Below are positions 17,900 through 64,000 of a DNA stretch of 64,000 bases, one piece after another. The stretch is from contig CAZWAK010000007.1 of assembly GCA_964631865.1 (NCBI GenBank), positions 1,934-65,933 of the forward strand, read 5' to 3'. The notes under the pieces are model-generated. The model was not told where the DNA came from, did not search any database, and saw nothing but the letters and a program-made list of their open reading frames with translations. A program made the position numbers and the translations under genes. Position 1 is the first letter of the stretch; every line of letters begins with the position of its first letter. Source of the DNA: an uncultured Heliobacteriaceae bacterium (GTDB taxonomy: Bacteria > Acidobacteriota > Blastocatellia > RBC074).

Positions 17900-17925
17900 G
17901 ACCGTCTTTATTGGCTGCGAGTTAT

Positions 17926-17969: not shown

Positions 17970-17990
17970 TGATGTCTCGAAGAGTGCGAT

Positions 17991-18875: not shown

Positions 18876-18882
18876 CGAGCCG

Positions 18883-19344: not shown

Positions 19345-19439
19345 AGAAGGTTTCTCCTGTAATTGGTTTTGATGGCGGCATCGTAACCAGCGAGAAAACT
19401 TCTCAGGCGGAAAGCTGTCACACTTTTTCGAGTGTGACA

Positions 19440-22442: not shown

Positions 22443-22541
22443 CACATTCAAAGAGCGTTTCTATTGTCAGGGAAACGCGGACGGTTTAGAGTCTACGGTT
22501 CGTAAAGATGTGTGTCAAGCACCTGATTTTTCGAGGATTTC

Positions 22542-32554: not shown

Positions 32555-32656
32555 AATCCTCGTAGTGGTGATTGATTTTTTCTGTCCGTGATTATGCCAG
32601 CAGTTGGCCAGGTCGAAAAGGGGAACGATTCTCCTTCTGTTGATATCCCTGAGTGC

Positions 32657-32750
32657 GCGCAGCGTTTGGAGTGCTGCGGCTTGACGTAGCTTTTTATCAC
32701 TCGAATTACCAAAGCGACGTCGAGACCGTCGCACTCCAAACGCTTCGCGC
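32657..32750. repeat. About 95-nt structured (nested inverted-repeat) element, copy A, 75 bp downstream of the TBDR stop
   Basis: Shares identical blocks agtgctgcggcttgacgtagcttt and aaagcgacgtcgagaccgtcgcactccaaacgcttcgcg with 43123-43219. Confidence 0.8.
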
Positions 32751-32826
32751 CACCCCCAATAAAAATGAGCCAGTGTATTGCCGCGAACGACAATGCACTG
32801 GCTCAAATAACAAAGGAGGATTTTCT

Positions 32827-35800: not shown

Positions 35801-36090
35801 ACGATTTCGCTCGCCGCAGCTTTGAAGCCGTCCGCCGCAATCTTCACGTTATATGTGCCAACGGGAACGTTGGGAAAGTTATAAGCACCTGCCGCCGTCG
35901 TCTGCATCGTCACGGTTTGCCCGGTCGCCTCGTTTTTCAACGTGACCGTAGCGTTGGGAATCACCGCGCCGGAAGCGTCGGTGACGGTTCCGCTGGCGCG
36001 TCCGCCCGTCGCCTGCGCAAACGCACAGACGGCTGTCAGCAAGAGGATCAAAAGGCTGTGAAAGACAAATTTAGGATTCATAAAACTCAC
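32827..36090 (-). CDS. TonB-dependent receptor with an N-terminal carboxypeptidase regulatory-like domain
   Basis: Signal peptide, ...GTVTDASGAVIPNATVTLKNEATGQTV..., about 1080 aa with beta-barrel repeats and a C-terminal ...RAKVVF. Start may be at 36081. Confidence 0.8.
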   Translation of the reverse strand: MSFMNPKFVFHSLLILLLTAVCAFAQATGGRASGTVTDASGAVIPNATVTLKNEATGQTVTMQTTAAGAYNFPNVPVGTYNVKIAADGFKAAASEIVIALNQESVVDVAMQTGEVSDQVNVTATAGGTLQTDTSQLSGSWNSRQSLELPIIGNYYSLALLAPNVVATSTGVVGTGGTIGGVRPRGNSFNIDGVNNDDPSVTGPSTKLILDAIQEFTVLTNNFNAEFGSAAGGQFNTVTMSGTNALHGSLFGYAQTESLNARWSNGTRPYFRNRRFGGTIGGPIVANKLFYFGAYQYERTQQNAVTSTYLAPTEAGLQQIAGFAGVSPFVVETLRNNLALAPTETAQRTVLGNAGVPFGTVALTVPAGAREHLFQTNIDHLPNDKNQFRYRFSFERRRAEQPGGGNAKFNNLQAYDSRLFSATWVRVFSPTIVNDARIAYRGITENYPIKDANVSNFPNLVVTELNLNLGPNQVLPQGAPVNSSYQIADALSWMRGAHTFKFGGEMRRQIFTQRFLQFARGYYDYASFDNLLRDQSPLVNGSFRSTGSDGFTGNQYRTAAFAQDDWKLKPNFTLNLGVRYEYSTLPRDLAMQALNSIASAPGVLEFNKPRTDKNNFAPRVGFAWSPTMKNRVGNWLFGEQGKSAIRANFGVSYYENFYNLVLTSLPPQFQQTLTAASANAAFGLDPARAFLQSGGIPNQLIPLTDANAARAATNAFIPDQVSPRSMSWSVAYQREIMPNTVLEVRYLGTRGSHLPVQLRLNAPAVFDNALVLPTFFSTPDVTQLAGLQTLGDVRAVPGVNARPLAANGFSTNLTSYQFVGSSQYNAGSVSLTRQFHRGLAFNLAYTWSTTIDNSTVELNSSAINPRRPQDFFNLRADRARSAMDIPHRVASSFTYDMPFFQNLDNKWLRMTFAGWQVHGIFQAQSGQPITPLSGVDSNINRDNAGDRTIFNPNGIAGISSGVTAINAAGQTVAMGNNATVGYVVNNPNAQYVVAGIGARSTAGRNTFRTFGFNRTDLNLTKAFVFGEKGQNFRIGAEFFDIFNQQPRTVAGVGALTAAFATAGNTFFNNYNIGNYSGRMIQLRAKVVF

Positions 36091-41509: not shown

Positions 41510-42193
41510 TCAGCGGACGGGTTTGACTTCCCATTGGGAAAGCGCAGATACCGCCATGCCCATCATCACCCAACGTTTGGGCGTGGTGAGAAAATGGATG
41601 CCCACGCGCCAGAACCCTTCGGCTTGATGGGCGTATTTGACCACGCCTTCCACTTGAAATTGTCCTTCCAGTCCGTTGAGCCGGAGTAAATCGCCGACGC
41701 CGACCTGCCGGTTAAGCGAAACGCAAACGCCGCGCCGACTGACGTTCTCGGTGTAAACTTCGTCCGCAAATCCTTGTCCGAACCGATCCTTGCCCTCGAC
41801 GGTCAGCTTCACGCCCAGCCGCACGCGGGTGTCGCGCAAACGGACGCCGGGCATGTCGTCCACCTCTCTTTCGACACTGCTTTTGTCAATGATCTCCTGC
41901 ACTTTGGCCAGATCGCTTTCCGCAATTTCCAGAAACCGCACGCCCACGCCCACTTCGCTCTGCACAAAACGCACCTGCGCTGTGGCTTGAATAAACGTGC
42001 GATCCGGTAAATTGAGTCGGAGATGCACCAACGCACCGGCTTGCAAGGGTAATTTGGTTGCAATGAAAACCCCTCCGATACTGAGGTTCGTCGCTTTGAC
42101 CCGGTACGTTTCTCCCTGGCAAAACAAAGTTACGGGGTATCCTGTGTCCACGCGGCGATAGCGCCGTTTATCTGTGTAGTTTTCTTTGGTCAT
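41510..42193 (-). CDS. Tandem PilZ domain protein (c-di-GMP receptor-like)
   Basis: RRYRRV...NLSIGGVF and RLRDTRVR...ENVSRRGVCV match the RxxxR / DxSxxG PilZ motifs twice. Confidence 0.75.
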   Translation of the reverse strand: MTKENYTDKRRYRRVDTGYPVTLFCQGETYRVKATNLSIGGVFIATKLPLQAGALVHLRLNLPDRTFIQATAQVRFVQSEVGVGVRFLEIAESDLAKVQEIIDKSSVEREVDDMPGVRLRDTRVRLGVKLTVEGKDRFGQGFADEVYTENVSRRGVCVSLNRQVGVGDLLRLNGLEGQFQVEGVVKYAHQAEGFWRVGIHFLTTPKRWVMMGMAVSALSQWEVKPVR

Positions 42194-43235: not shown

Positions 43236-46200
43236 TCAAAACGTGAACTTCACCGCCAACTGCAATTGACGCGGGTCGCCCACGCCTTGCCGCAGGAAGC
43301 CGTCAAAATTGAACAGCCCCGGCGTAATCAGCGGATTGATGAGGTTCCGGTTATTGAAGGTATTGAACATCTCGATGGTCGGAATCAGTGCGAAGCGTTC
43401 GCCGCCGAAACGGAACGGACGCGACACGCGCCAATCGAACGAGAAGAATTCGTTTTCCTTGCGCGTCGTGTTGCGGTTCGTCGCCGTCCGCGTGCCCGGC
43501 GTGATCGGTTGCGCGGAACGAGCCTGAATGCGCGTGTTCACCTGCAAACCGCCCCAGATTTCGCCGTAGAGCAGGAAGTTGAATTTGTGGCGAATGTCGC
43601 GGTCGGAGAGCGCGTAATCGAGGCGCAGATTGCGGATGTCGAACGAACGATCTGAGAACGGGTCGCGTTCGTTGGAGTCGTCGTCCAGGTCTTTCGACCA
43701 CACGTAATTGCCGTCCAATTGAAAACCTCTGCTCAGCCGTTTGCGCACACCGATTGTGAAGCCACGATAGAGCGATTTGCCGACTGAACTTGTAATCGCC
43801 GTTTCATCCAGATACGGCGCGAAGATGCCTAGGCGTCCGTAGTTCAAAAAGCGCGTCAGCCGCACGCCTTTGGAATGCGTGAAGTCGAGATAGAGCGCCG
43901 TGTCCGTAGCAATCTGTTGCTCAAACTGCACGTTCGTCGTGTAAATACGCGGGTTCGTGTAATCGCGGCTGAACGCGCGCACGCCTGAAAAACACGGGAA
44001 CGGATTGGTGCCGAGCGAGCCGCTACAGGTTTGTGCCGTCGGCGTCAGCACGCCCGGCCACGTCGGCGCAGGCAAGCCGAACCCGATCAACTCTGTGTTG
44101 CGGAAGATGGTTTGTTGCTGCACGCCGTTCGTCGTGATCGAACCGACTTGCGACAACATATTTTGCCGCGCGTTGTAAATGCCCCACGAAGCGCGCAGCA
44201 CCGATTTGCTGTTGTTTGCGAAATCCCACGCGAAGCCGATGCGCGGTTGGAACATCTTCCATTGATCGGGCAACGTGCCATCGGACGGGAAACGCGGATC
44301 GCGCAGGAACAAACCGTACGCCGTTTTGGCAGGCTCAACCGTTGGGTTCGGCAAGACCTGTGCTTCCCAACGCAAACCGAACTGCCACGTGAAGCCGGGA
44401 CGCCATTGCCATTTGTCCTGCACGAACGCCGCGAACTCATCGTTGTTGATGTCAGACGCACCGGCTGCATCAGTAGCGGGGCCGCTGGGGCCTGCGCCTT
44501 GCAAATACAACAGCAACGGGCCGCCTGTCGCCGTCGTTCCAGTTGGACAAGCGGCTGTCGCGGCGACATACGTTCCGTTCGAGCAGCCTTTGATGTTTGG
44601 CCCGAATCCTGCGCCCAGGCTCGCGGGCGAGGCATAACGTAAAAATCCGGTCACGCTGTCAAAGATGTAGCGCGCGGTGAAGAAGCCGCGAAAGACCTGT
44701 GTGTTGTTGCTGCGAATGTATTCGCCGCCGAATTTCAGGTTGTGTCCGCCCGCGATGATGGAGAAGCTGTCGCGCACCTGAAACCGCTGGAACAATTCAT
44801 CAATGCCGGGTTGTATAAAGAACGGGCTGCCGAAACGAAACGTCGTGGCAAAGCCCATCGCCGTGTCCGCCGGGACGTTCGATTGCACGGCGCTGCGCGG
44901 ACGATCTTCGCGCGAAAACGTCGCGTGAAATTCATTGAGCTTCGTGCTGGACAACGATGAGTACAGGTTCCAATTCAGCACATTGATTTTGCCCGGCCCT
45001 TCCGTGCCGTTCGCCGAATTGCCATACGTCGCCACATCGAAAGTTTCGTTGTCTTTGCGCGAGCGGCTGAAGTTGTATGAAAACGCAAAATCATTGGCAT
45101 CGCTGAATTTCCAATCCAGTTTGCCCAAAAACGCCGACGTATTGACCGGTTTTTTCAGCGGCAAGCCTTCGTCCTGTTGGCGCGTGGTTTTGAAAAAGTT
45201 GATGAGCGCGAGGCGTTGGCAATCGGCGCTGCTGTTGATGAGGGCTTCGTTGGCCTGAATCGTCGGAGCTTGAAGGCTGCACGGCGTGCCAATCGGCACA
45301 CTCAAATTCGCGCGCGTGAAGTTGCCAGTGATTTGCTCGAACGCGCCGAAGAAAAACGCTTTGTCCTGCACCAGCGGGCCGCCCAGCGTGCCGCCGAATT
45401 GCTCACGGTGAAAATCTTTGAGCGAATTGCCATCGGACGTTTTGGCCGTCATGTTTTCGTGGCGTTGGAAATGAAAGATCGTGCCGCGAAAATTATTCGT
45501 GCCGGATTTGGTGATGACGTTCACGACACCGCCTGCGGTGCGTCCGAATTCAGCCGATGCGCCCGTCGCCACGACCTGAAATTCCTTGATCGCGTCGAGC
45601 GTGATGTCAATGGCCGCGCGCTGTCCGCCGACCTGTTCGCCGAAGAAGCCGTTGTTGTAATCGCCGCCGTCCAAACTGATGTTATTGAAGACGCCGCGTT
45701 GCCCGGCAAAATTGACGACATCGCCGTCCGGCCCTTGCGTGACGCTGACGCCGGGCGTCAGCGTGAGCATATCCAGAAACTTGCGCCCCAGCACTGGCGT
45801 GTTGGAGACCGCGACTTCATTGAGCGTCGAACTGGATTCGGTTTTCACGGTGTCAATCGTCGGCGCACTGGTGATCGTGATGGTTTCTTCCACTGACGAA
45901 ACTTTCATTTGCAACGACAAACTGATCGTTTGTCCGACCGTTAACGAAAGGCTTTCCTGTCGCAGTTTGGCGTAGCCTTGCTTCGCTACTTGCAACTCGT
46001 AACGACCCGGTTGCAATTGCAAAAAAGCAAAGCGCCCTTCCGCATCTGAAACCAAAACTCTCGTCAAATTATTGTCCAGATTTTTGGCTTCAATATTCGC
46101 ACCGGGCACGACTGCGCCGGCCTGATCGGTGACGGTTCCCTGAATAACGCCGGTCGTGCTTTGGGTTTGAGCGAAAGCGGGGAGAGAACATAAAAGCAAT

Positions 46201-46237
46201 AATAAGAGGCTGATGCCTCGTCGTAGATGACAAATCA
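43236..46237 (-). CDS. TonB-dependent receptor with an N-terminal carboxypeptidase regulatory-like domain
   Basis: Signal peptide MICHLRRGISLLLLLLCSLPAFAQ, ...GTVTDQAGAVVPGANIEAKN..., about 1000 aa, terminal ...LAVKFTF. Confidence 0.8.
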
Positions 46238-46503
46238 TTGGCGTGCTCCTTCTCGAAAAAAATAACCTGTGTCTCAAGTTTCTTGTGACCGCATTTGATG
46301 GCTGGCGATTGTATGAAGCCATCCCGCATTCGGCAAGGGCTGGGAAAGATTTTTGCGCAAATCAAATCCATGTTAGCGCGAGGTTAAGCGGAGCCAATAT
46401 TAACAGGGGTTTGCTGCATCATTTTGACAATGTGAGCGAGGATGGCCACAATGCAGGCGCGTCGTTTTTCTTCGTCAAAATGTTCCGAAACTGAGGAGGT
46501 CTT

Positions 46504-50858: not shown

Positions 50859-51746
50859 ATGGAATTCCGACAACTCCGAACTCTGCTGGCCATTGCGGAA
50901 ACGCGCAACTTCACGCGCGCGGCGGAGCGTGTGCATTTGACGCAGGCTGCCGTGAGCGCGCAGATCAAAACGCTTGAAGCCGAAACCGGCGTGCCGTTGT
51001 TTGCGCGCGTGAACAAAAAAGTTTTTCTGACCGAGGCGGGCGAATTGCTGGTGCGACGCGCCGAGCGTTTGCTCAAAGCGCACGACGAAGCTTTGCTTGC
51101 GCTCAAGGAATTGGGCGATGCCGAACGAGGCCGCCTGCGCATCGGCACGGCTTCGACGATGGCCAGCAATGAGCAATTGCCAACGATTCTCGCGGAACTC
51201 AAACGCGCGTATCCGAAAGCACAAGTCACCGTGCGCCGCGCGACGAGTGCGGAAATCGTCGCGCAGATTTTGCAAAACGATTTGGATGTCGGCTTGGTTT
51301 CGCTGCCCGTCGAGGCCAACGACATTCGCGCTGAGGTGTTGCAACGAGATCGTCTAGTTGCTATCGTGCAACCTGCTCATCCCCTCGCGCATCAACGCAG
51401 CATAAGCCCCCTACAACTCGCTGCCGAGCCGCTGATTCTCGGTGAACAGGGCGGCAACACCCGACGGTTAATTGATTTGTTTTTTGAGAAATCTGGTGTG
51501 CGGCCCCAAGTGGTCATGGAATTGGGCAGCAACACTTCGATCAAACGCATGGTCGAGCACGGCCTGGGCGTGAGCCTGCTGCCGCGTTCGTCGGTGCGCG
51601 AGGAGATGAAGGCTGGTAAACTAATTGCGTTGCCGGTGCGTGGCTTTAAGGATAATTGGGAATTGGGGCTGGTCACGCTCAAAGGCGATCACGTGCCGCC
51701 CCTGCAACGAGCCTTCAAGCAGCTTTGCAAACAATATTTCGACTGA
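50859..51746 (+). CDS. LysR family transcriptional regulator
   Basis: N-terminal HTH ...LRTLLAIAETRNFTRAAERVHLTQAAVSAQIKTLE... and a substrate-binding domain. Confidence 0.85.
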   Translation: MEFRQLRTLLAIAETRNFTRAAERVHLTQAAVSAQIKTLEAETGVPLFARVNKKVFLTEAGELLVRRAERLLKAHDEALLALKELGDAERGRLRIGTASTMASNEQLPTILAELKRAYPKAQVTVRRATSAEIVAQILQNDLDVGLVSLPVEANDIRAEVLQRDRLVAIVQPAHPLAHQRSISPLQLAAEPLILGEQGGNTRRLIDLFFEKSGVRPQVVMELGSNTSIKRMVEHGLGVSLLPRSSVREEMKAGKLIALPVRGFKDNWELGLVTLKGDHVPPLQRAFKQLCKQYFD

Positions 51747-51759
51747 GGAAACTTTGAGG

Positions 51760-52920
51760 ATGAAACAAACACGACAAACCTGGTTCAGCGTCATCATCAG
51801 TGCCACACTCATCATCAACTTATTCGCCTTTTCTGCGTTCGCACAACAACGACGACCACGTCGTACCAGCGACGTAGAATTCAGCCCGCTCGCAGCAGGC
51901 ACACGGGTCTTGCCCAGAGGCTACGTGATCGTCCTGCGCCTGGACACGCGCTTGGATTCCAGCCGTGTGCGTCCGAGTGATCGCTTTTACGCGCGCCTTG
52001 ACGAACCCATCACGGACGAAGCGGGCAGCATGATCTTGCCCGCGAATTTATTGGTGATGGGCCACGTCAGGGAGGCCACGCCCGCACAGATGGGGCGGCG
52101 TTCCGGCCTCATCGAAATCGAGTTCGACCGCCTGGCCATGCCTGACGGACGCGAGCTGCCGGTCAAAGGCATTTTGACCAGCGCCGATCCGGCAGAACGC
52201 AAAAAACTCAAAATTGATGAAGAAGGCGTGCTGGAAGGCGGCGGACAAGTGAAGCGCAACACCGTGTTTGTGGGCGGCGGCGCGGCGACAGGGGCGGTGA
52301 TCGGCGCGATTGCGGGAGGCGCGGCGTTGGGCGCGGCAGTCGGCGCAGCGGCAGGTGTGGTCGCGGTGTTGTTGGCCAAAGGCAAAGAAGCGATTGTCGA
52401 GCCAGGCACATTGATTGGCCTCGAATTGACGGAGTCGTTGGACTTGACGCAACGCGGCACGATTCCGCCACCACGACCGACAACACCAGCGCCAACGACA
52501 CCAACCACGACGCCTTCGCCTTCAACGCCCGCGCCGAATCCCAGTCAACCTCCTGCGACAACGCCGGACACAAACGGTTCGCAGCAGCCTGTTCCGCTAC
52601 CGACGCCGCCTCAGGAACCGCAACTGGTGAAAGTCAGTTTTGTGCAAGTCGAGCGTGTGTCGGGGAATTCGATTTTGGTGGTTGCCACAGCCGAAACAAC
52701 CTCTGGCGGCTGGCGCGTCAAGGCGGAGCATCAAGTTAATCAAGACACGCTGGAAGTATGGGTCAAAGGCACGCCGCCGGAAGGTCGCGCGTCCAAAGCC
52801 ATCTCGCATCCGACGGTCACCACAACGGTGGCAGACCCCAGTCGTGCCATTCGCCGCGTCGTGGTTCACGGTCTGGGCGGCGACCGCACCGTCGCCGTGC
52901 CGCAACAAATTCGCCGGTAA
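51760..52920 (+). CDS. Secreted protein with a glycine-zipper segment and a Pro/Thr-rich linker
   Basis: Signal peptide, GGGAATGAVIGAIAGGAALGAAVGAAAGVVAV, and PPPRPTTPAPTTPTTTPSPSTPAP. Start trimmed to MKQT. Confidence 0.5.
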   Translation: MKQTRQTWFSVIISATLIINLFAFSAFAQQRRPRRTSDVEFSPLAAGTRVLPRGYVIVLRLDTRLDSSRVRPSDRFYARLDEPITDEAGSMILPANLLVMGHVREATPAQMGRRSGLIEIEFDRLAMPDGRELPVKGILTSADPAERKKLKIDEEGVLEGGGQVKRNTVFVGGGAATGAVIGAIAGGAALGAAVGAAAGVVAVLLAKGKEAIVEPGTLIGLELTESLDLTQRGTIPPPRPTTPAPTTPTTTPSPSTPAPNPSQPPATTPDTNGSQQPVPLPTPPQEPQLVKVSFVQVERVSGNSILVVATAETTSGGWRVKAEHQVNQDTLEVWVKGTPPEGRASKAISHPTVTTTVADPSRAIRRVVVHGLGGDRTVAVPQQIRR

Positions 52921-52937: not shown

Positions 52938-53573
52938 ATGAAATTTTACGACATCACCGTTCCGTTCTCGACCGATTTGCCCGTGTATCCGGGCGATCCA
53001 GCCGTGCAAATCACGCAAGTCGCCAGCCTCGCGGCAGGCGATATTTGCACCGTGTCGCATTTGAGTTTTGGTTCGCACACGGGCACGCACGTAGACCCGC
53101 CGGCCCACTTCGTTGCAGGTCGAGCGACGTTGGACGAATTGCCGTTGGAAGTGTTGATTGGCCCGGCGCGTGTCGTGGATGTCGGTGAGATCAGCGCGAT
53201 TGATGTGGTGACGATTGACGCCGCGAATTTAACGGGCGTCGAGCGCGTACTGTTCAAAACGCGCAATTCACGGCTCTGGCAAGCAGGCGTGTGCGAATTT
53301 GAGACAGCGTTTGTTTACCTGGAAACAGCAGCGGCTGAGCGATTGGTGGAACTCGGCGTGAAACTGGTCGGGATTGACTATCTCTCGGTGGAAAAATTCA
53401 ACTTCGAACAGCCCACCACGCATTACGCGCTGCTCGGCAACGATGTCGTGATTGTCGAAGGCTTGAATTTAACGGACGTGGCGGCGGGCGATTACGAATT
53501 GATTTGTCTGCCGATGAAAATTCAGAACGGCGATGGCGGCCCGGCGCGAGTGGTGCTGAGAGAACTGGCTTGA
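52938..53573 (+). CDS. Cyclase family protein (kynurenine formamidase-like)
   Basis: HTGTHVDPPAH matches the cyclase HxGTHxDxPxH motif. Confidence 0.8.
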   Translation: MKFYDITVPFSTDLPVYPGDPAVQITQVASLAAGDICTVSHLSFGSHTGTHVDPPAHFVAGRATLDELPLEVLIGPARVVDVGEISAIDVVTIDAANLTGVERVLFKTRNSRLWQAGVCEFETAFVYLETAAAERLVELGVKLVGIDYLSVEKFNFEQPTTHYALLGNDVVIVEGLNLTDVAAGDYELICLPMKIQNGDGGPARVVLRELA

Positions 53574-53594
53574 GGCGCTTTTGTGGGGAGCGGG

Positions 53595-55190
53595 TCAATT
53601 ACACTCGATCAACGAAGTTTCCGCCAGAATGGCTTCGGGTTTGGCGTCCGCTTGTTGCAGCAGGCTGTCGAGCGTCTGACTCAATTCCTGTTGGAACGAA
53701 CCGCAAATGCTGTCGAGGTCTACCAGCAGGTCTTCGTGATCCAGTTTGCGATACAGCGTCATCGCGCCGATGTCGTGGTTTTGATGACGCAGCGGCACGC
53801 GCAACGACCACTTAGCCTCTACCGTTGTCAGTTCGTCCACGTCTCCACCCGAACGTACTTTGCCCCATCGAACATTGGTCGCGTCGGTAGGCATCGGTTT
53901 CCATCCGTTCATCTCTGCCCCGGCAGCGAACGTTGGTTGGTGAGACGTACTGGCGAGTGTCTTGAGTTCCAGCGTGATGCTGTCAAAATCATTCATCTCG
54001 CAAATTTGACTGAGCAACGCGAAAATCTTTTCGGCATCTGCCGTCTGCTTCATCGCGGCGCACAGTTGCCGGACATTCACATTGGCGATCATTCGGCGGC
54101 GGCGGCGCGTGACGCCTTGACGGATTTTACTCCCGATTACTTCAAATTCAGGGTAACGAAGCCGTTGCACCCCCACCACGATCAACACGCCCAACGTGCT
54201 AAAAATCAACGCGGCGAGCGAGCGACGCGGATTCAGTAGCAAAATGCCGAACAGACAAAATACGCCGCAAACCCCGTACAGCAAAATCGTCGTTTGTCGC
54301 ACCGACAAACCGTGATCCAGGAGCCGATGATGAATGTGCCCGCGATCACTTTGCATCAGCGGTTTGCCGCCCACGAACCGCCGAATCACGGAGAGAAAAA
54401 TTTCGACGATGGGCAAGCCGAACGACACCATCGGAATGGCAATCGCAATTGTCGTCGTTCCTTTTTGCGCGCCAATCAACGACAGCACGGCCACCATAAA
54501 CCCCAGCATCAGGCTGCCCGAATCGCCCAGGAAAATCGAAGCGGGGTGAAAGTTGAAATAAAGAAACCCGACGACGGCTCCGAGCAAAATGATCGCCAGC
54601 AAACCGATCTCGAAATTCCCTACGGCCACAACCGTGAACAAAATCGAAAGCAGCGCAAACGCGGAAATACCGGCGGCCAAGCCGTCCACGCCATCCACCA
54701 GATTGAACGCGTTCGTGATGCCGAGAACCCAAATTAAGGTCAGCACAAAGCCCAGCCCCTCCGGCAGGGCAAAGTTTTCGCCCAGAAACGGCAGCGAAAC
54801 CAACTCAATGCCGAATCCCCAATACTGCAATAAAACGGCAGCCCCGCTCTGCACGGCAATTTTGACCCAGGCACTGCAACCCTTCAGGTCATCATACACG
54901 CCCAGCAAAAAAACTACGGCGGTACACAAGACAATAGAAAGATACCACTGCGGATGCGCATTGAAGCGTTGCCCGATTTCATTTTGCAGAAACGGCACGC
55001 AGCAAAGCGTGAGCAGGAAGCTCGCAAAAATCGCCACGCCGCCCAGGCGCGGCGTAGGTTTCTGGTGAACGCGGCGCTCGTTGTCGGGAATATCTATTGC
55101 ACCCAATGCCATCGCCAACCGCGCGATCAGCGGCGTAAAGACCAACGTCAAAATCAGTGCAATGAGAAATAATACGATGTAGGAGCGCAT
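53595..55190 (-). CDS. Undecaprenyl-phosphate N-acetylhexosamine-1-phosphate transferase (WecA/MraY family) with a roughly 200-aa C-terminal extension
   Basis: Polytopic. ...VYDDLKG..., ...NAFNLVDGVDGLA..., ...HIHHRL... motifs of the MraY/WecA family. Confidence 0.8.
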   Translation of the reverse strand: MRSYIVLFLIALILTLVFTPLIARLAMALGAIDIPDNERRVHQKPTPRLGGVAIFASFLLTLCCVPFLQNEIGQRFNAHPQWYLSIVLCTAVVFLLGVYDDLKGCSAWVKIAVQSGAAVLLQYWGFGIELVSLPFLGENFALPEGLGFVLTLIWVLGITNAFNLVDGVDGLAAGISAFALLSILFTVVAVGNFEIGLLAIILLGAVVGFLYFNFHPASIFLGDSGSLMLGFMVAVLSLIGAQKGTTTIAIAIPMVSFGLPIVEIFLSVIRRFVGGKPLMQSDRGHIHHRLLDHGLSVRQTTILLYGVCGVFCLFGILLLNPRRSLAALIFSTLGVLIVVGVQRLRYPEFEVIGSKIRQGVTRRRRRMIANVNVRQLCAAMKQTADAEKIFALLSQICEMNDFDSITLELKTLASTSHQPTFAAGAEMNGWKPMPTDATNVRWGKVRSGGDVDELTTVEAKWSLRVPLRHQNHDIGAMTLYRKLDHEDLLVDLDSICGSFQQELSQTLDSLLQQADAKPEAILAETSLIECN

Positions 55191-55201
55191 AACAAATTAT
55201 T

Positions 55202-56395
55202 TCAATCCAGTAAACGTTCGCCAGCCATCACAGCTTTATAAACTTCCAATGTTTGGCGAATAACCAATTCCTGCGTAAATTTCTCCAACACCAAAGCGCG
55301 ACCATTGGCTCCCATTTCCCGCCGCAAAGCCGGGGCGAGAAGTAATTTTTGCAAAGCATCAGCCAGTGCAACCGGGTCTTTGGGCGGAACCAGCAGCCCG
55401 TTCCATCCATCCCGCACAATTTCACGACAACCGGTGACATCGGTCGTCACAATCGGTCTGCCGGACGCCGCCGCTTCAATCAAAGACAGCGGTAAGCCTT
55501 CGCGGTACGAAGGCAAACAAACAATATGCGACTGCGCCAGCAACTCCGGGATGTCGCTGCGATGCCCAACCCATTCGACCAATCCTTCTTTTTCCCAGCC
55601 TCGCACCTCCGCTTCCGTAATTGCGGTGGGATTTCCGGGATCGAGCATGCCAGCCAGAAGCACGCGCAGTTGTTGCCCGCGCTGCTTGAGAAGGCGGCTC
55701 GCCTCGACCAATTCGACCACCCCTTTGTCACGCAGCATGCGAGCCGTGAGCAAAATGACGGGCGTGCCGACTGGCTCCGGTTTTGGAGTAAAGAGCGTTG
55801 TGTCTACTCCCGCCCCGGCAATCAATGCGGTTCTGCTTTCAGGCAGGATTTTCCGCTGCACAAAAAAAGACCGATCATCCTCGTTTTGAAAAATGGTGCG
55901 GGCGTTCCGATTTGCCAGACAAAGGCGATAGGCAAAGGTCAATGCGCGCCGCAGCACGCGCGCCTGCCACTGATTGGACGTGAAAAGATAGCCGAGTCCC
56001 GTCACCGCGTTCACAGTTGGGACGCGCGTCAGACGCGCCGCGATGGAGCCGTACAGAATCACGCGCAGCGTGACCTGATGCACAAGCTGCGGCTGCCAGC
56101 GCCGATGCAACGCAACAATGTTGGCTATCGTTCTCCATTCCGTCAGCGGCGTCGCGCTCAGTCGTTGCAACCGCAGCGGTTCAAAATCGAAGCCTTCCGC
56201 CTGAATGCGTTCGACATATTCGCCCGGCAACGTGGCCACCGTGACCGCGTATCCAGCCGCGCGCGCGGCGCGTGCCAGCCGCAGACGATGTGTCCAAAAA
56301 TACCAATCGTTGGGAATCAAATACAGAATGCGCGGTTGCGCCGTGGGCTGCTGCGCCGAAGCCGAGTCAGTAGCCAACTTCGCAGGCCCAATCAT
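55202..56395 (-). CDS. Glycosyltransferase family 4
   Basis: C-terminal GT4 motifs (...[26 protein letters not shown]...). Start set at MIGPAK for a 4-nt overlap with asnB; it could extend to 56455. Confidence 0.75.
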
Positions 56396-58356
56396 CTCGC
56401 TTCTTCGCTCAACCAAGCCTGGAACATCAAAATGGGCCATAAGTAATAATGCCAATTGCGCGCGCCGGACAAATGCTCAAGCCATCGCTCCCGCACTAAA
56501 TCTGCTTTGAAAAAGCCTTCCGTGCGCAAGCGGTTTTCATCAATCAACGCCTCCGCCCATTCGCGCAACGGCCCGCGCAACCAAACATCAATCGGCACGC
56601 CGAACCCTGTTTTCGGGCGTTCGATCAATTCACGCGGAACAAACTTATAAAGCAGTTGCCGCAAAATCCATTTGCCTTTGCCGTCCCGAATTTTCAGGTG
56701 CAGCGGCAAACGCCAGGCGAATTCAATCACGCGATGATCGAGAAACGGAACTCGTGTTTCCAGACTCACGCCCATCGCCGCGCGATCTACTTTCACCAGA
56801 ATGTCATCGGGCAAATATGTCATGAAGTCCAGAAACATCATGCGTTGCTCAAAATTTGTCCCGTCGCCCCAAGCTTGACTAATAGCCATCGCAGTCGGGT
56901 CTTCGTGCGTGTGCAACACCAAATCGTCCGTTTTCTTCCAGGTCGAAATCAAACTCTGATAAATAGCCTCTGGCTGCTCGACCACCAGAATCTCCGCCAG
57001 TTTATGCAGTTTGTCGCCGGGCACGTTGTAGCGCAGGCTGCCGGGAATAATCATTTTCAGCCCCTGAAACGTGTGATTCCAGGTGGTCGGCGAGACGGTT
57101 GTAATCCCAGCAGCAGCGGCCTTTCTAAGTCCGAGTGGAATCCAACCCAGCTTGTTCCAGATGTTGGTCGCCCAAAAATATCGGTTGTACCCACCAAACA
57201 ATTCGTCTCCGGCATCGCCCGACAAACTGACCGTCACCTTCCGCCGCGCCAGTTGAGAGACGAGGAAGGTGGGAACTTGTGACGAATCGGCGAAGGGTTC
57301 ATCGTACAGTGCAGGCAGCTTCGGGATCACCGCCAACGTTTCGGCGGGCGTGACATAAAATTCTGTGTGATCGGTGCCCAAATGACGCGCCACCGCCTTC
57401 GCAAATTCTGCTTCGTTGTATTCGGTCTCGTGAAAGCCAATCGTAAAGGTCTTGACCGCTGACGCCGACTCGGCCTGCATTAAAGCCACAATCAACGAAG
57501 AGTCTATGCCGCCCGACAAAAACGCGCCGAGCGGCACATCGGCGATCATCTGCCCGCGAATCGTTTCGCGTAAGATCGTCTCCAATTCGGTCAACGCTTC
57601 TTCTGCCGTGCCGGAAAACATCTGAGCGCGTGCTTGATGGGCAATCTCCACCGGGTCCCAATACGGCTTCGGCACTAGGCTTTCTTTGCGCCCACAAGCC
57701 GCCAACGGAATCGTCAGAATCGTGCCCGGCAACAGCTTGTAAATACCGCGATAGATCGAATACGGCGCGGGAATATAGGTATAGCGCATCAAGAGCGCCA
57801 GCGCTTTTCGCTCGACTTCTCCGCGCCAATCTGGGTGCGCACACAACGCTTTCAATTCCGAGCCAAAGAGCAACGCCTCGCCGACCCAGCCATAATACAG
57901 CGGCTTCTCTCCAGCGCGATCTCGCACCAGATGTAGCACTTGTTCTCGCCGATCCCACACCGCGAACGCGAACATCCCGACGAAGCGTTTGACCGCCGCT
58001 TCTATGCCCCATTGAGTAAAAGCGGCCAGCATAACTTCCGTGTCCGAATGGCCTCGAAAACCGTGTCCTAAAGACTCTAACTTCGCTCTTAACAGTGGGA
58101 AGTTATAAATCTCTCCGTTGAAGACAAGCACATATCTGCCGTCCGCAGAAAGCATCGGTTGATGGCCTTCCGGGGACAAATCCACGATGGACAGACGGCG
58201 ATGCCCCAATCCAATTCCCGTTTCGGTCTCCACCCAGGCACCACTGTCATCCGGGCCGCGATGAAGCACCGCACAGGCCATCTGCGCAGCGATGTTCGTG
58301 AGTTCTGCTTCGCTTCGGTGATTCGCGGAATCAAGAAAACCCGTTATGCCACACAT
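56392..58356 (-). CDS. asnB: Asparagine synthase (glutamine-hydrolysing)
   Basis: N-terminal MCGITGF... GATase Cys2, and the PP-loop SGGIDSS. Confidence 0.85.
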
Positions 58357-58364
58357 AGCAATCG

Positions 58365-59456
58365 TTACCTGATAGGATGGGATAAGACTTCTCGATAAAG
58401 GTTTTCGTAGCGCGCGACGACGGAACTTAAACTAAAATGTTCTTCAATCCTACGCCGCGCCGCCGCACCCAACGCAACTCGTTCAGGTTTACTCATCATC
58501 AATATCGTTCGCCATCCAGCAGCCAACGCCTGCGCGTCGCGCGGCGGTACTACAAGACCAGCGTCGCCGATTATCAGGGCCGAATCGCCCACGTCTGTAG
58601 CCACACACGGAACGCCACAAGCCATGGCTTCTCCCAGCACATTGGGGAAGGCTTCGCTTTCCGAAGAACTAGTGGCAAGGTCAAGAGCGAGCAGAATCGG
58701 CGTGACATCTTCACGCCTTCCAAGCAAAAAGCAAGCGTGTTCAATGCCTGTCTGTTGCAGGAGCGCCATCAATTCCTTGTTCTCCCAATGAATTCCGTTG
58801 CCGCAAAGAAGAAAGCGAGCAGCAGGCATGTCTTTCAGCAGTAAAGCTGCCGCCTGAGCAAAATTAGGAAGGCCTTTTCTGCGATCATATCGAGTAATTA
58901 GCCCGATCAATGGCGTTGTACTTTCCAAACCCAATTCCTGGCGAAGCGAAGTAGAATTTTCCTGACTAGCCCGATAATGTGTTAGGTCAAAGCCATTAGG
59001 GATAACGACTATTTTGTCGGAATCATAACCCATTTCAAGGTGCGACTTCCGGGCGGTTTCCGAACAACTAACAATGCGAGTAGGAAGCAATGACGATAAG
59101 CGGGCACAGACTTTAGTTAGTATAAACGTCTTTTTATCTTTGATATAAGGAGCAACGTCAGCTCTGATATTCCATACGACGGTGGCATTTGTACTGAGTT
59201 TTCCTACAATGCCCGCCATCAAATCTGCGTGGTACATCCAGGTTTGAATAATATCTACGGGGCGACCTGCCAGGTAACGCCAGAGCCTCCCTAATTTCGC
59301 AGGTGAAGGAATTTGCATCCCTTGCCTCAGCCCCAACGCCCTAACCGGGATGCCGAGCTGCTGAATTTTTTCTCCTAATTGCCCCTGATCTGTTAACGAG
59401 ATAACTTCCAAATCAAATACTTCTTTATTCATGCCGACGAGAAGTCTATAAAGCAT
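58365..59456 (-). CDS. Glycosyltransferase family 4 whose N-terminal beta-strand/Gly-loop is encoded upstream of the first ATG
   Basis: GT4 motifs (...[27 protein letters not shown]...). The in-frame upstream codons read ...KIHIVHVISGLLAGGAES before MLYRLL, with no ATG/GTG/TTG. Confidence 0.65.
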
Positions 59457-59566
59457 TGATTCAGCCCCTCCGGCAAGAAGCCCGCTAATAACGTGAACAA
59501 TATGAATTTTATTTTGCAGAAGCCAAAACCATCCGTAACCTGCGATAGGCGAGCTATCTCAGATAG

Positions 59567-60424
59567 TTATTTTTTGTACCCCACGGCTGTCCAGAATTGA
59601 TCTGTATGGAAAGTAATATCACGTAACCCCGCCCGCAGCATCATTTGCCTCACTTGTAATTGCGTGAAGCGTTGTTCGAGGCGCGTCCCAAACCGGTCAA
59701 GCGCATCATTTCTCATCACGTACAACGTACGGTGGCGATACCAGGCTAAGGGAAAGTGTTCTACATTTACCCCCAGTGCTTCTAACCCTAAAGCAAAACG
59801 AGCCAGTGGCCAGTAAATTAACCTCGCTAATATGTCACTTATGAGAGATCTTAGAGGAAGAGGTAGCCGAGAGATAAGGCGGCGGGCTAAGTCACTTCCT
59901 TTCCAAATCAACCTAAACCAAAACGGACGGTTATCAAACGCATAATACAAATAGAGTAAGAAAGGAGCACCAGGTTTGAGTTTGGCAATACATTGCCGAA
60001 GCCCAGCCTCCGTATCAGGAACATGGTGCAACACTCCTAATGAATATCCAAAATCAGCAGAGTTATCAAGTAAAGGAATAGCATCTACACTGGCTTGATA
60101 AAACTGACAATTTGACACTTCCTTAAGATTTAGGCGCGCAACATCAAGTGCTTCCGCACTAGGGTCAATCAGATGTAAGAAGCCAACTCGTGGGGTAACG
60201 AATTTCGCCCATCTTCCACTGCCACAACCTAAATCAAACCCCACCGCATTCGGTGGTAACTTCTCCCAGGGGAAAATATTAAAATAACTATCAAACATCA
60301 CAGACAACTCTGCGGCTGAGAGCTTCGATTGATCAAATCGTTGCCACTCGTCCCCAAACCCCTTTACAACTTCTTCGTGAATATTTGCGGCTGTCATTGC
60401 CTGGGGAAATAAGGAATTCCGCAT
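59567..60424 (-). CDS. Class I SAM-dependent methyltransferase
   Basis: ...VGFDLGCGSGRWA... motif I. Confidence 0.7.
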   Translation of the reverse strand: MRNSLFPQAMTAANIHEEVVKGFGDEWQRFDQSKLSAAELSVMFDSYFNIFPWEKLPPNAVGFDLGCGSGRWAKFVTPRVGFLHLIDPSAEALDVARLNLKEVSNCQFYQASVDAIPLLDNSADFGYSLGVLHHVPDTEAGLRQCIAKLKPGAPFLLYLYYAFDNRPFWFRLIWKGSDLARRLISRLPLPLRSLISDILARLIYWPLARFALGLEALGVNVEHFPLAWYRHRTLYVMRNDALDRFGTRLEQRFTQLQVRQMMLRAGLRDITFHTDQFWTAVGYKK

Positions 60425-60425
60425 C

Positions 60426-61802
60426 TCAATTTACTCCCCTAGCAAAGCCCCGCCTATTCGCCACCGGCACAAATCTGATTCGTTGTCTTTTGCGCTTCAG
60501 TCTTACAAATGGCCGGATAATTATTCGTAGAAATCCAGGGCCACCAGTAAGAACTAAAATGCCGTATGCAACTATATGATGTCGAATTGCCGTGCCCCAA
60601 TTGGCAGTTCCCATCGCCCACAAAAACTCAAGGCTAAAATAGCAGATTATTAGAAAGCCCCATTGACTCCGGCGCTCGCCCGAAGCGTGATACCAGGTGG
60701 CCAAGGCGTGAAAGATCAATAGTAATCGCAGATAACCTTCAAACGCTCCATAAATATCAACTGTACTGGAAATCTGCCAAGGGAATGGAGCCAGCATATA
60801 CATAGTAAATACCCAAGCGGCAGAAGGAATAAAAGCAGTAAGTGAAGACGTATCGAGCGTTCCCCCATAGCTGGCTCGGTCATAGCTTGTTGTTGTTCGA
60901 TCCCGATAGACTCCAGCATACTCTGCTCCTTCGCCAGACATTAAGGCTCTGGCCGCTCCCCCTGTGTCGCTGGCAATCAAAAACCAAGTCAATAAGATTC
61001 CTCCGAGCAACCCTACCCCCGCAAGTTTGGCTATCAAGCTTCGCCCTTCCCACCTCTTCAAATTGAAACGCAGCCCCCAAAAGAAACCTAAACAGATCAA
61101 AAATAGGGCGTATATGAATAACCCATTATGAAAGACCCCTAACGCGAACCCTGACCCACTCAGCATTATCATTTTCACTAATGTAGGCTTTTTGCGCAGC
61201 GACAAACCGAAATATGCGACCATCAAAAAGAATAGCATCTGTAGTGACTCGCGCATGGTGATAGAAGTGAAGATGATTGCTGAAGGCAGTAAGCCATAAA
61301 TAAGAACCAGCCCGATTTGCCATCTTGCAATACCAAGCAATCTTGCCATTTTTATAATCACCAAGCAGGACATAACATAGGCCAAAATTGATAATTCCTG
61401 GCCGAGCAGTTTAGAATCACCAAATAAGCGATAGAAAAACGAAAGAAACTGGATATATGCACTACTCCCTGCCTCCATACCGCCAAACTCAGCAAACCAC
61501 ATAGGCTGAATTGAATGTGACATGGTGACAGCATTCTCGTGGAAAGTGACAGCATCCATATCAGCGCCGATTAAGATGAAGTAATAAGCGTTGACGAACG
61601 AGGTAAGGTGTCTAGCTGATAAAGCGAGAAAAGTAACGGCTAACAACCTCCAATCGCTATGGATATCCTCATCTGCAAACAGAGTGAAATAGGTTCCGTA
61701 AAGCACGACTAAGGCTGCACGGTCGGCGGATAGAAAACTAAAGAAAACTATAATCATAAATGCAAGGGATAGAATACTAACTTCTGATTTACCTAAGATC
61801 AT
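60426..61802 (-). CDS. Polytopic membrane protein, putative O-antigen/EPS repeat-unit polymerase (Wzy-like)
   Basis: More than 10 predicted TM segments, in the middle of a GT/methyltransferase cluster, low GC. The assignment is by context only. Confidence 0.45.
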   Translation of the reverse strand: MILGKSEVSILSLAFMIIVFFSFLSADRAALVVLYGTYFTLFADEDIHSDWRLLAVTFLALSARHLTSFVNAYYFILIGADMDAVTFHENAVTMSHSIQPMWFAEFGGMEAGSSAYIQFLSFFYRLFGDSKLLGQELSILAYVMSCLVIIKMARLLGIARWQIGLVLIYGLLPSAIIFTSITMRESLQMLFFLMVAYFGLSLRKKPTLVKMIMLSGSGFALGVFHNGLFIYALFLICLGFFWGLRFNLKRWEGRSLIAKLAGVGLLGGILLTWFLIASDTGGAARALMSGEGAEYAGVYRDRTTTSYDRASYGGTLDTSSLTAFIPSAAWVFTMYMLAPFPWQISSTVDIYGAFEGYLRLLLIFHALATWYHASGERRSQWGFLIICYFSLEFLWAMGTANWGTAIRHHIVAYGILVLTGGPGFLRIIIRPFVRLKRKRQRIRFVPVANRRGFARGVN

Positions 61803-61919
61803 ATTTCTTATTCAATCTATCAACCAACTTTGTAGTTATGTGATTACACAAAGTAAATGTTGATGGCTAAATACTGCATTAAACTCCGGACTGCAAGACA
61901 ACTCCATTTGCTATACTGA

Positions 61920-63062
61920 TTAAAGTAGCTGGCTCAGGGCCTGTTCAGTTTTTATAAAGAGTGTCTCTATACTAAAATTTTCAGCAATCTGGTGCCGCAC
62001 AATATTTTTTTCAGGTAAGGTTCCTCTTGCAACACTTAATATCGCCTCGGCCAGTAATACGGGATTACGTGCTGGAACCACGATACCAACGGAACCGACA
62101 ATATTTGACGAATCTCCTACATCGGTCACAATACAGGAAACACCACAGGCCATCGCTTCCCCAATGCTATTTGAAAAACCTTCTGTAATCGAAGAGGAAA
62201 CCGCAATATCCAGCGAATTATAGACTGCGGCCATATCGTCCCGAGCCTCACTCCAAATTAAGCGCGAACCTAGCATTTGTGCAGCAGCTAAATTTTTCAT
62301 TTCTGATACATATTCCGGACTTCCATTACCAACACACACAAACCGCAATTTGGCGTTTTGCTGCGCCGTCGAGAGTGCTGCCTGTAAGAATGTAGGATGA
62401 TCTTTCATCGGGTCAATTCGAGCGACTAATCCAATCAATATTTCGTCTTCCTGAATGCCCCATTCAAGTCTGAGTTTTTTTCTCAAGGCGTCGTTTGGTG
62501 AAAACTTCCGGATATCTATGCCATTATATATGGTAATTATTTTGCTCCTCGGAAATTGACGGGTAATAAGATGACGATAACCAGCCTGCGAATTTACGAT
62601 GATCAGATCCGCCCAACGAGCCAAATATTGCTCTAATTGACTAATGAATCGCTCTAACCAGTCATAGCGGCTCAAATCCATGTCAGAGGCGCGAATTCCC
62701 CAAACTATTTTCATTTTTGGGGAAAAAGCTTTAATGAGTACAGCCAAAATATTGGCAACTGCCAAATAGCTATGTAAAATTGCAGGCTTCTCTTGGCGAA
62801 TTAATAAAATCAGCCTGCAAATGAATAACAACACATCCCAGCGCCCTCTTTTCTGTAGGCAATGCACTGGAATACAATTACTAACTAGTTCTGAATCAAA
62901 TTCCCCTTTATAAAAAGTAGCAACAGTTACAGGCCACCTTTTTAAGGTGAGGCCTTTTGTTAACAAGACTAACTGTCTTTCTGCCCCCCCCCGCTCTAAA
63001 GCGCGCGAGAGAAAAAGAATTTTCTTCTGAGCTATTGACATGCTATTACAATTTCTCGTCAC
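61920..63062 (-). CDS. Glycosyltransferase family 4 carrying a G9 homopolymeric tract in codons about 19-22
   Basis: ...[23 protein letters not shown]... GT4 C-terminus. The likely start is MSIAQKK at 63041. Confidence 0.8.
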   Translation of the reverse strand: MTRNCNSMSIAQKKILFLSRALERGGAERQLVLLTKGLTLKRWPVTVATFYKGEFDSELVSNCIPVHCLQKRGRWDVLLFICRLILLIRQEKPAILHSYLAVANILAVLIKAFSPKMKIVWGIRASDMDLSRYDWLERFISQLEQYLARWADLIIVNSQAGYRHLITRQFPRSKIITIYNGIDIRKFSPNDALRKKLRLEWGIQEDEILIGLVARIDPMKDHPTFLQAALSTAQQNAKLRFVCVGNGSPEYVSEMKNLAAAQMLGSRLIWSEARDDMAAVYNSLDIAVSSSITEGFSNSIGEAMACGVSCIVTDVGDSSNIVGSVGIVVPARNPVLLAEAILSVARGTLPEKNIVRHQIAENFSIETLFIKTEQALSQLL

Positions 63063-63078
63063 TCTTTCCTAATCAACC

Positions 63079-63882
63079 TTATTTAACTCCGACACACATG
63101 ACATACGTTGCCAGTTGCTGATTAGACTTTATATTGCCGTTTATTTTCTCAAGCAACCTTACTAGGTACGAGCCACGCCTTAGTAAGGCTATAATGGGAA
63201 ATGTGATAATAAAAGCTAAACTGTTAGTCTTTACCCCACTCAAGTTACACATGCCAAAGTTTAGGGGTATTAAATAGTCGCATGTCAATACATTAATACC
63301 TGAGTCATAGTGCGCACGCTTTAGGTCTTCAGTTGTAAGCGGCACGTGGATATCGTAAACTCGCCGATTGGCAGTTTTTTGCGCCCAACCAATTATACCA
63401 GTCATATTCGGGATTATGGTTATAACTATACCTCCTTTTTTCATATAACGCATAACAGCTTGTATATATCGAGATGTATCTTCAAAATGCTCTGCCACCC
63501 CCATTGATAGAACAACATCGAATACCTCAATTAGATTATCCGGCGGGTGAAACAAATCTGCACAAATAATACTACCTTGTACGCCCGCCCGATATAAGAT
63601 TTGGCGCTCTTGCTCGCAACCTATTTCTGAGTAATCGATTCCACTAACTTCAAACCCATACTCTTTGGCAAAATAGGGAAGCCAGGACGAGCAAGCGCAT
63701 CCGATCTCTAACAAAGTTGCCCCTTTCATTTGCCTTCCTCTGAATATGTCCTGAAAACATTCATGTAGTTTTATATTTACATAGTTTTTACTACTTAAAT
63801 TATAAGGATCAACTGGTTTAATATCGGCAACAGTATTCCAATTGGCATCCCAGTAATCCTTTCCCGCTTTATCTATGTTCAT
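63079..63882 (-). CDS. Class I SAM-dependent methyltransferase
   Basis: ...LLEIGCACSSW... motif I. AT-rich gene. Confidence 0.7.
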   Translation of the reverse strand: MNIDKAGKDYWDANWNTVADIKPVDPYNLSSKNYVNIKLHECFQDIFRGRQMKGATLLEIGCACSSWLPYFAKEYGFEVSGIDYSEIGCEQERQILYRAGVQGSIICADLFHPPDNLIEVFDVVLSMGVAEHFEDTSRYIQAVMRYMKKGGIVITIIPNMTGIIGWAQKTANRRVYDIHVPLTTEDLKRAHYDSGINVLTCDYLIPLNFGMCNLSGVKTNSLAFIITFPIIALLRRGSYLVRLLEKINGNIKSNQQLATYVMCVGVK

Positions 63883-64000
63883 TATTTTCTTTTCTCAAGC
63901 TTTGAATACTAAAACAGTCCATCTTAATTTTCTTGGCGACAAAATAGTAACGCGATGTTTATTTAGGTGAGGTTCGGACTATATACAGTACCTATTAAGC

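Follow-up and report, generated by a model that had tools for sequence, protein, structure and literature searches.

The terminal part (positions 53595-64000) of the 64,000-nucleotide stretch of contig CAZWAK010000007.1 analysed here, hereafter the window, is occupied by eight genes, all on the minus strand, that very probably represent the promoter-distal half of a flippase-dependent cluster for a heteropolysaccharide on the chromosome of an uncultured Blastocatellia-type acidobacterium. Both the cluster and its mosaic composition are confirmed and belong to a familiar type; the distinctive parts are a polytopic protein of the GT-C class A fold that is a candidate repeat-unit polymerase and the fusion of a WecA-type initiating transferase with a GAF-fold domain. 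A previous examination of the letters and open reading frames of this DNA (the sequence-only reading) had proposed an O-antigen or exopolysaccharide cluster in which a GC-rich part is joined to an AT-rich part. The gene families uphold a polysaccharide cluster of the exopolysaccharide, capsule or O-antigen type, and the main idea holds with three corrections that concern the position and layering of the variable block, the meaning of its low GC content and the label 'Wzy' attached to the polytopic protein.

The compositional switch is abrupt. GC content in 2-kb bins stays at 0.53-0.59 over 1-58 kb and then falls to 0.489, 0.442 and 0.407. At the level of individual genes, the GC content of third codon positions (GC3) is 0.663 ± 0.043 in the 33 other genes of the window, and the genes for the initiating transferase (wecA), the first glycosyltransferase of family GT4 (GT4a) and the AsnB-type amidotransferase conform to this background, with values of 0.66, 0.62 and 0.62, asnB being the last gene of typical composition. 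In the five genes that follow, encoding GT4b, the methyltransferase MT1, the polytopic protein, GT4c and the methyltransferase MT2, GC3 is only 0.46, 0.42, 0.45, 0.39 and 0.37 (z from -4.6 to -6.8), and the Karlin codon-bias distance from the background is raised in all five (z from +4.5 to +7.0). The dinucleotide signature distance of 58365-64000 amounts to 213, compared to 41 ± 14 (maximum 62) for 5-kb pieces elsewhere in the window. The block thus combines the atypical composition and the sharp border that characterize an exchanged variable cassette. The border coincides with the 8 bp that separate asnB from GT4b (58357-58364), a recombination breakpoint with a GC3 of 0.62 on the asnB side and 0.46 on the other, and a codon bias of 0.28 and 0.56, respectively; the drop from about 58.4 kb that had been perceived in the raw sequence is therefore borne out by the GC and codon-usage calculation, which yields a step at this gap and not a uniform composition. 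No tRNA gene, integrase, insertion sequence, or significant or flanking repeat was detected at the borders at 58.36 and 60.98 kb, and promoter-like and terminator-like sites are not commoner than in shuffled sequence.

Could the switch be an artefact, that is, a chimeric metagenome contig that joins two organisms at about 58.37 kb? The window does come from a metagenome-derived contig of 87,846 bp, and the assembly of run SRR12816583 breaks exactly here, with two contigs that end at 58375 and 58403 and overlap by 29 bp at the compositional junction. However, a separate sequencing run, SRR12808459, yielded a contig that matches 54429-60049, junction included, at 100% identity, which rules out an assembly chimera, and the same adjacency of GT4b and asnB is seen in several relatives (loci L004, L086, L091, L092 and L093, and L006 with one methyltransferase gene in between), so that we consider a chimeric origin barely conceivable. 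The break in SRR12816583 may reflect the coexistence of strains with alternative cassettes in that sample.

Beyond the window, the same genome can be followed on a contig of run SRR12816583 (L001) that is 100% identical to 58375-64000 and reaches 4289 bp further. Reading upstream, this extension encodes a MurJ-like flippase, RmlA, RmlB, RmlC and the 3' end of another GT4 gene; thus, the cluster continues past the end of the window, as had been predicted. GC3 in the extension is 0.38 for the flippase gene, 0.48-0.54 for the rml genes and 0.64 for the far GT4, and because the last of these values is back at the level of the flank, the AT-rich stretch, about 9.6 kb long, is internal to the cluster. 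The exact window proteins are known from Logan contigs of up to 9.9 kb, and this genome is seen up to the second GT4.

Comparison with related loci identifies the AT-rich block as an exchanged cassette because close relatives, in which asnB is 90-91% identical, carry other genes at this place between conserved flanks. The two close relatives are represented by metagenome contigs L084 and L091. In L084, asnB shares 90% protein identity and 85% nucleotide identity with the window gene, and identity reaches 86% for rmlB and 80% for the far GT4. The segment from rmlA to asnB, by contrast, consists of genes for a methyltransferase, a GT-C protein, another methyltransferase, a Wzx-like flippase and a GT4; nucleotide homology has its limits at 58362 and at window-equivalent position 65574, inside the 3' end of rmlA. 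Locus L091 is collinear with the window further inward, with 81% nucleotide identity over 53497-60452 and 78% up to 60976, and with protein identities of 84% for the initiating transferase, 87% for GT4a, 91% for AsnB, 80% for GT4b (58365-59456; 363 aa, the first AT-rich gene, with Pfam GT4 domains) and 87% for MT1 (59567-60424; 285 aa, Pfam Methyltransf_11, E 5.9e-17). For GT4b, this contrasts with an identity of only 49% in L084. Past 60976, similarity to L091 is lost, GT4c and MT2 are absent, and the flippase belongs to another family. In both comparisons, nucleotide homology ends at exactly 60976, inside the gene for the polytopic protein (60426-61802), which marks an intragenic recombination breakpoint (60970-60982) and makes this gene a chimera: residues 276-458 of its product are 81-87% identical to the proteins of L084 and L091, residues 1-275 are only 45-47% identical, and in the latter part L084 and L091 are 76% identical to each other. 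The lineage-specific part of the cassette includes GT4c (61920-63062; 380 aa, Pfam GT4 domains), which lacks a counterpart at the same position in L084 and L091 and has its best orthologue-like matches, at 43-54% identity, in L086, L093 and L088, and MT2 (63079-63882; 267 aa, Pfam Methyltransf_11, E 8.4e-12), the lowest-GC gene of the window (GC 0.396, GC3 0.369), for which no close counterpart was found in L084 or L091.

In four more distant relatives (L004, L006, L086 and L093), the order GT4, rmlCBA, MurJ-like flippase, variable methyltransferases and glycosyltransferases, GT4, GT-C, GT4, AsnB, GT4 is kept, and variation affects the decorating genes and the initiating enzyme. In L086 (15838-19949) and in L087, a PglC-like small transferase along with PglD/E/F-like genes replaces wecA, and in L093, a deacetylase and a formyltransferase are encoded at 17698-19467, where an initiating transferase is absent. 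Mobile-element rearrangement has left a trace in the variable part of L093, namely, a fragment of a DDE transposase together with a truncated gene for an acyltransferase (5216-5470). The MT1 homologues of L006 and L093 (63-66% identity) lie elsewhere within the locus. In the close relative L092, a gene for a restriction-modification-like protein (M_Eco57I_C; 6306-9478) follows wecA in place of the convergent cyclase gene found in the window; therefore, the downstream border of the locus is not fixed either.

Taken together, these comparisons resolve the locus into four layers: wecA, GT4a and asnB, which form a conserved unit with the usual composition (53.6-58.36 kb), an AT-rich segment common to some relatives (58.36-60.98 kb), a lineage-specific segment of the lowest GC content (60.98 to about 65.6 kb) and a conserved flank with rmlCBA and a further GT4. 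The sequence-only reading had treated 58-64 kb as a single exchangeable unit; the block is indeed variable, but it is layered, with GT4b and MT1 shared with L091 and the lineage-specific part starting only at about 60976. We propose that pieces of the cassette, which spans from 58.36 to about 65.6 kb in window-equivalent coordinates, have been swapped between lineages through recombination events located in the conserved flanks and within the GT-C gene itself. The replacement anticipated among related strains is seen, in the sense that gene content differs while the flanks are collinear, but it is seen between species or genera. This is a point against our interpretation that has to be made explicit: asnB nucleotide identity of 81-85% places the relatives in different species or genera, so that for serotype switching at the strain level the sole hint is the assembly break at 58375-58403. 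AT-rich recombining cassettes in surface-polysaccharide loci are textbook knowledge, which is extended here to uncultured Blastocatellia from stream and soil metagenomes.

So what does the low GC content signify? One notion, that everything from 58.4 to 64 kb arrived recently and in one piece from an AT-rich donor, as a genomic island the GC content of which reflects that donor, would readily explain the strongly atypical composition (the GC3 and dinucleotide deviations given above) and the sharp boundary at 58357-58364. Nevertheless, GT4b and MT1 share 80-87% identity with their counterparts in L091, about as much as the flanking genes do (84-91%), and the L091 copies are just as AT-rich (GC3 of 0.44 and 0.40). 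The two copies of these genes are separated by about 0.9-1.0 substitutions per fourfold site and are both still AT-rich; a rough estimate is that sequence evolving toward the composition of its host would, at such a divergence, have lost most of its GC deficit. Furthermore, the block is AT-rich relative to the flanks in seven further loci, namely, L004, L006, L084, L086, L091, L093 and the L001 extension of the same genome, the GC3 of the flanks in the first six ranging from 0.41 to 0.65, and the borders lack the tRNA, integrase, insertion sequence or flanking repeat of an island. A single recent import thus appears unlikely. Because the deficit persists over this divergence and in every lineage examined, low GC is a standing property of the cassette: the inference of horizontal exchange stands inasmuch as the block is exchanged, but its low GC is long-standing and does not mark a recent import. 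More generally, the persistence of low GC in a partly vertically inherited block speaks against interpreting a low GC content of glycan loci as evidence that they were recently imported.

Two causes could keep the GC content low: the alleles may be exchanged again and again within an AT-rich pool, or the local equilibrium may itself lie lower. Under the latter possibility, to which we give appreciable weight but would not grant even chances, cassette alleles drift toward AT, either because their divergence precludes homologous recombination or because they are expressed at a low level, and are swapped as units; the mechanism, for which our confidence is similarly limited, would be the escape of these alleles from GC-biased gene conversion or from codon selection. 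The AT-richness of the block in every lineage examined, at a level that partly follows the host (block GC3 of 0.25-0.38 with flanks at 0.41-0.50, and of 0.37-0.46 with flanks at 0.61-0.66), is compatible with such an equilibrium, and so is synonymous divergence, which at fourfold sites is higher in the block (K4 of 0.9-1.4) than in the flanks (0.52-0.63), although these estimates come from 74-144 sites with a simple correction. On the other hand, repeated draws on a shared AT-rich allele pool would give the same pattern.

The most unusual component of the cassette is the 458-aa polytopic protein. The sequence models of Pfam and NCBIfam uphold seven of the eight gene labels of the sequence-only reading, that is, the wecA-like gene, three GT4, AsnB and two methyltransferases, in the order and on the strand originally described and with matching coordinates; the exception is this protein, then called Wzy-like, which has no match in either database. 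The transmembrane core shows structural similarity to the GT-C class A fold, with ALG12, ArnT, PIG-M, Pmt4 and AftB as the best matches, and neither a match to Wzy_C or related sequences nor a fold like that of WaaL, RodA or WzyE (GT-C class B; clans GT-C1 and GT-C2) was found. Models of Wzy_C, EpsG and O-antigen polymerases do not hit any product of 53.6-64 kb or of L001, and even under relaxed thresholds, the Pfam models of EpsG, Wzy and Wzy_C give no hit at E<=1 among 64 family members. The label 'Wzy' is accordingly rejected on both family and fold. The family itself is very large (7125 sequences at E<=1e-3 and 1033 at E<=1e-30, each standing for a cluster at 50% identity) and lacks a curated sequence model: among ten more distant members, nine have no Pfam hit at E<=0.1 and one has a chance-level hit to DUF7471 (E 0.015), and a weak match to PMT_2 (E 3.4e-5) appears in one of the 64 homologues, the window protein having none. 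A profile search with the family against sequences of solved structures gave no meaningful hit, and tblastn of the protein against annotated plasmids and phages gave no match. Genes of this family co-occur repeatedly with GT4 and AsnB genes across phyla, including a homologue labelled as Elusimicrobiota. An aspartate, D83, is invariant in the motif GAxxDAxxFH, at the start of a short helix that follows the N-terminal helices, and R184, R407 and H408 are conserved as well; helix positions and the positive-inside rule give conflicting membrane topologies for the protein.

What might such a protein do? The GT-C class A fold covers enzymes that use lipid-phosphate monosaccharides but also oligosaccharyltransferases, which use lipid-diphosphate oligosaccharides (PMC10920833); it is the fold of lipid-phosphate-sugar transferases and oligosaccharyltransferases and not that of known polymerases or ligases. 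Polymerization of repeat units seems the most likely role because no other candidate is present, and we regard it as a reading somewhat short of an even chance. In eight of the ten loci that carry a member of the family, it is the only polytopic protein besides flippases; in L089, its gene lies between a pair encoding Wza and a co-polymerase-like protein and the flippase gene, and in L091 it adjoins the flippase gene. Furthermore, the N-terminal two-thirds of the protein covary with the flippase and the cassette glycosyltransferase, a behaviour typical of polymerase genes. A possible lead comes from the polymerases of clan GT-C3 (families GT122-124), for which the structure is unassigned and which are described as carrying a long, conserved loop close to the N-terminus together with conserved Asp and His residues and two conserved Arg residues (PMC10920833): the window family similarly has D83 in the N-terminal loop region along with R184, R407 and H408, but no sequence relationship was found, and the likeness is no more than a lead.

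The principal competing explanation is that the GT-C protein uses an undecaprenyl-phosphate monosaccharide to attach a sugar as a side branch or at a terminus, in the manner of Gtr or ArnT-type enzymes, and that the true polymerase is encoded elsewhere. Several observations weigh on this side and thus against the polymerase role. The solved compact enzymes of the GT-C class A fold all use lipid-phosphate monosaccharide donors, as do ALG12, ArnT, PIG-M, Pmt4 and AftB, the best structural matches (donor classes from PMC10920833), and this donor usage, along with the weak PMT_2 match of one homologue, favours the addition of a sugar over polymerization. In addition, two of the ten loci (L088 and L090) encode a canonical Wzy_C protein besides the GT-C protein. 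However, the partners that sugar addition would call for are hardly seen. A lipid-phosphate sugar synthase of the GtrB/ArnC type (a GT2 with C-terminal membrane helices) is encoded in only one of the ten loci (L088), no GT2 is encoded in the window or L001, and no small GtrA-like flippase was seen; hence the locus differs from the GtrA/GtrB/Gtr and ArnC/ArnE-F/ArnT systems (PMC11127046) in that the synthase and small flippase partners are absent here and in nine of the ten related loci. The location of the GT-C gene next to the flippase in L089 and L091, and next to the co-polymerase-like gene in L089, is also that expected of a polymerase. All considered, a periplasmic sugar-adding enzyme, with the polymerase elsewhere, is a serious but less probable possibility, an oligosaccharyltransferase-like enzyme appears improbable, and the remaining possibilities combined carry similarly little weight. 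To return to the polymerase hypothesis, its broad form, in which the family is the missing Wzy-type polymerase, with an ArnT/ALG/OST-like fold, of flippase-dependent pathways in Acidobacteria and other uncultured phyla, and initiation is ligand-gated through a cryptic GAF domain, is put forward tentatively. If the GT-C protein does polymerize repeat units, it would represent a new polymerase family and help annotate thousands of environmental glycan loci that now seem to lack a polymerase.

The second distinctive element is the initiating enzyme, encoded at 53595-55190 (531 aa; PF00953, E 1.6e-39), which provides the polyprenyl-phosphate phosphoglycosyl transferase characteristic of a Wzx/Wzy-dependent cluster. 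Its score with the WecA equivalog model TIGR02380, 129.8 bits, does not reach the cut-off of 326.05, so that it can be placed in the family but not called a WecA equivalog. The C-terminal domain (residues ~347-516; 53643-54152) adopts a GAF fold, although GAF sequence models give no hit at E<=1 in any of 58 homologues. This long form is usual in Blastocatellia, and full-length matches also exist in Gemmatimonadales; the fusion is common in Acidobacteria. A homologue search with the C-terminal part alone produced only five hits. A limited literature search recovered no description of a GAF domain linked to WecA-type enzymes, which is weak evidence of novelty. The fusion suggests direct control of the first committed step by a small molecule. 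A parallel is PelD, a GAF domain-containing receptor for c-di-GMP under whose control the Pel polysaccharide is made. In both cases, a GAF-fold domain is physically attached to the membrane-embedded polysaccharide machinery, but here it is fused directly to a WecA/MraY-family transferase and is not accompanied by a GGDEF-like domain.

Gene identities, the compositional step, the breakpoints, the replacement of the cassette in relatives and the two folds are direct results, whereas the reaction order, the polymerase role, the sugars involved and any regulation via the GAF domain are deduced. From the gene content, we infer a pathway in which the WecA/MraY-family enzyme would transfer a sugar-1-phosphate to undecaprenyl phosphate, a step that may be controlled by a ligand of the GAF-fold domain, and three or four cytoplasmic GT4 enzymes would build the repeat unit, including a dTDP-activated 6-deoxyhexose presumably made by RmlA, RmlB and RmlC. 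AsnB would then amidate a carboxylate, and the two methyltransferases would methylate the repeat unit; a methylated glycan, as envisaged from these two genes, is plausible. The MurJ-like flippase would carry the repeat unit across the membrane, where the GT-C fold protein would polymerize it at the outer face or else add a further sugar from a lipid-phosphate donor, and the polymer would be exported by machinery like the Wzc-type kinase encoded upstream in L084 or the Wza encoded, with a co-polymerase-like protein, in L089. Because Wzc and Wza accompany the loci of relatives, the product is judged most likely an exopolysaccharide or a capsule, over an O-antigen. Of the flippase and Wzz-type genes that the sequence-only reading suggested looking for beyond the window, the former is present on L001 and encodes a 422-aa MOP-superfamily protein of the MurJ/MatE type (206.8 bits, under the MurJ cut-off of 235.55), that is, the flippase of a Wzx/Wzy-dependent cluster; neither a polymerase of a known family nor a chain-length regulator (Wzz/Wzc) or an outer-membrane exporter (Wza) was seen in this genome within the window and L001, which counts against the proposed pathway. 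RmlA, RmlB and RmlC all score over the NCBIfam equivalog cut-offs. An rmlD gene was not seen with the rml set (L001 314-2809, window-equivalent ~65.5-68.0 kb) or in the L084, L086 and L093 loci, and because of this the 6-deoxyhexose may not be L-rhamnose, a point that goes against the straightforward version of the pathway, or the reductase may be encoded elsewhere. In L093, an extra gene for a short-chain reductase/epimerase adjoins the GT-C gene.

The organization resembles that of Wzx/Wzy clusters such as enterobacterial rfb and cps in the initiating transferase, several cytoplasmic glycosyltransferases, rmlABC and a flippase of the MOP superfamily, and also in the AT-rich variable centre that is exchanged between conserved flanks by flank recombination. 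It differs in that the sole polymerase candidate is a GT-C class A fold protein and not a member of a described Wzy family, the flippase resembles MurJ and not the Polysacc_synt type, a GAF-fold domain is fused to the initiating enzyme, the rml set comes without rmlD, and the host belongs to Acidobacteriota. An AsnB-like amidotransferase of a polysaccharide locus is also known in Pseudomonas aeruginosa, namely, WbpS. As in the WbpS and XrtA/PEP-CTERM systems, the AsnB paralogue is found among GT4 genes and is presumed to amidate a sugar carboxylate, but here the TIGR03108 cut-off is not reached and the visible part contains no gene for uronic-acid synthesis. Membership in the XrtA/PEP-CTERM system was considered and rejected, given that AsnB scores 586.9 against 816.9 required by TIGR03108 and the GT4 proteins 114-142 against 409 required by TIGR03088; exosortase or PEP-CTERM genes were not seen near the locus, without a search aimed at exosortase.

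As for the remaining components of the cluster, GT4a (55202-56395; 397 aa, Pfam Glycos_transf_1, E 3.2e-34) is 68-87% identical across the relatives, is called as a 397-aa gene also in public assemblies, and its start overlaps the stop of asnB. The latter gene (56392-58356) encodes a 654-aa glutamine-dependent amidotransferase (TIGR01536, 488.6 bits, cut-off 267.1). The window ends with the start of the intergenic region upstream of MT2 (63883-64000, minus strand), from which the cluster runs on in L001.

The rest of the window is ordinary chromosome that includes genes for Lon, Rho and enzymes of the shikimate pathway (AroD/E), tmRNA and TonB-type barrels, and the nearest genomes are metagenome-assembled genomes of Blastocatellia (Acidobacteriota) that have the same convergent cyclase, conserved unknown and LysR genes beside wecA. 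A 431-aa open reading frame (51625-52920, plus strand) has no Pfam hit and is found, at 55-68% identity, beside the cyclase gene in L004, L086 and L093; its ends as listed overlap the LysR and cyclase frames, which leaves its true start uncertain. About 12 kb from the cluster, the minus strand encodes a 227-aa protein with two PilZ stretches (41510-42193). The tmRNA gene (22077-22443, minus strand) specifies the tag peptide ANQELAMAA (ARAGORN; 142 bits with Rfam). Finally, two large TonB-type outer-membrane barrels with carboxypeptidase-regulatory-like N-terminal domains are encoded on the minus strand at 30740-36090 and 43236-46322, along with a GH5/PA14 protein, a typical acidobacterial complement for glycan uptake.

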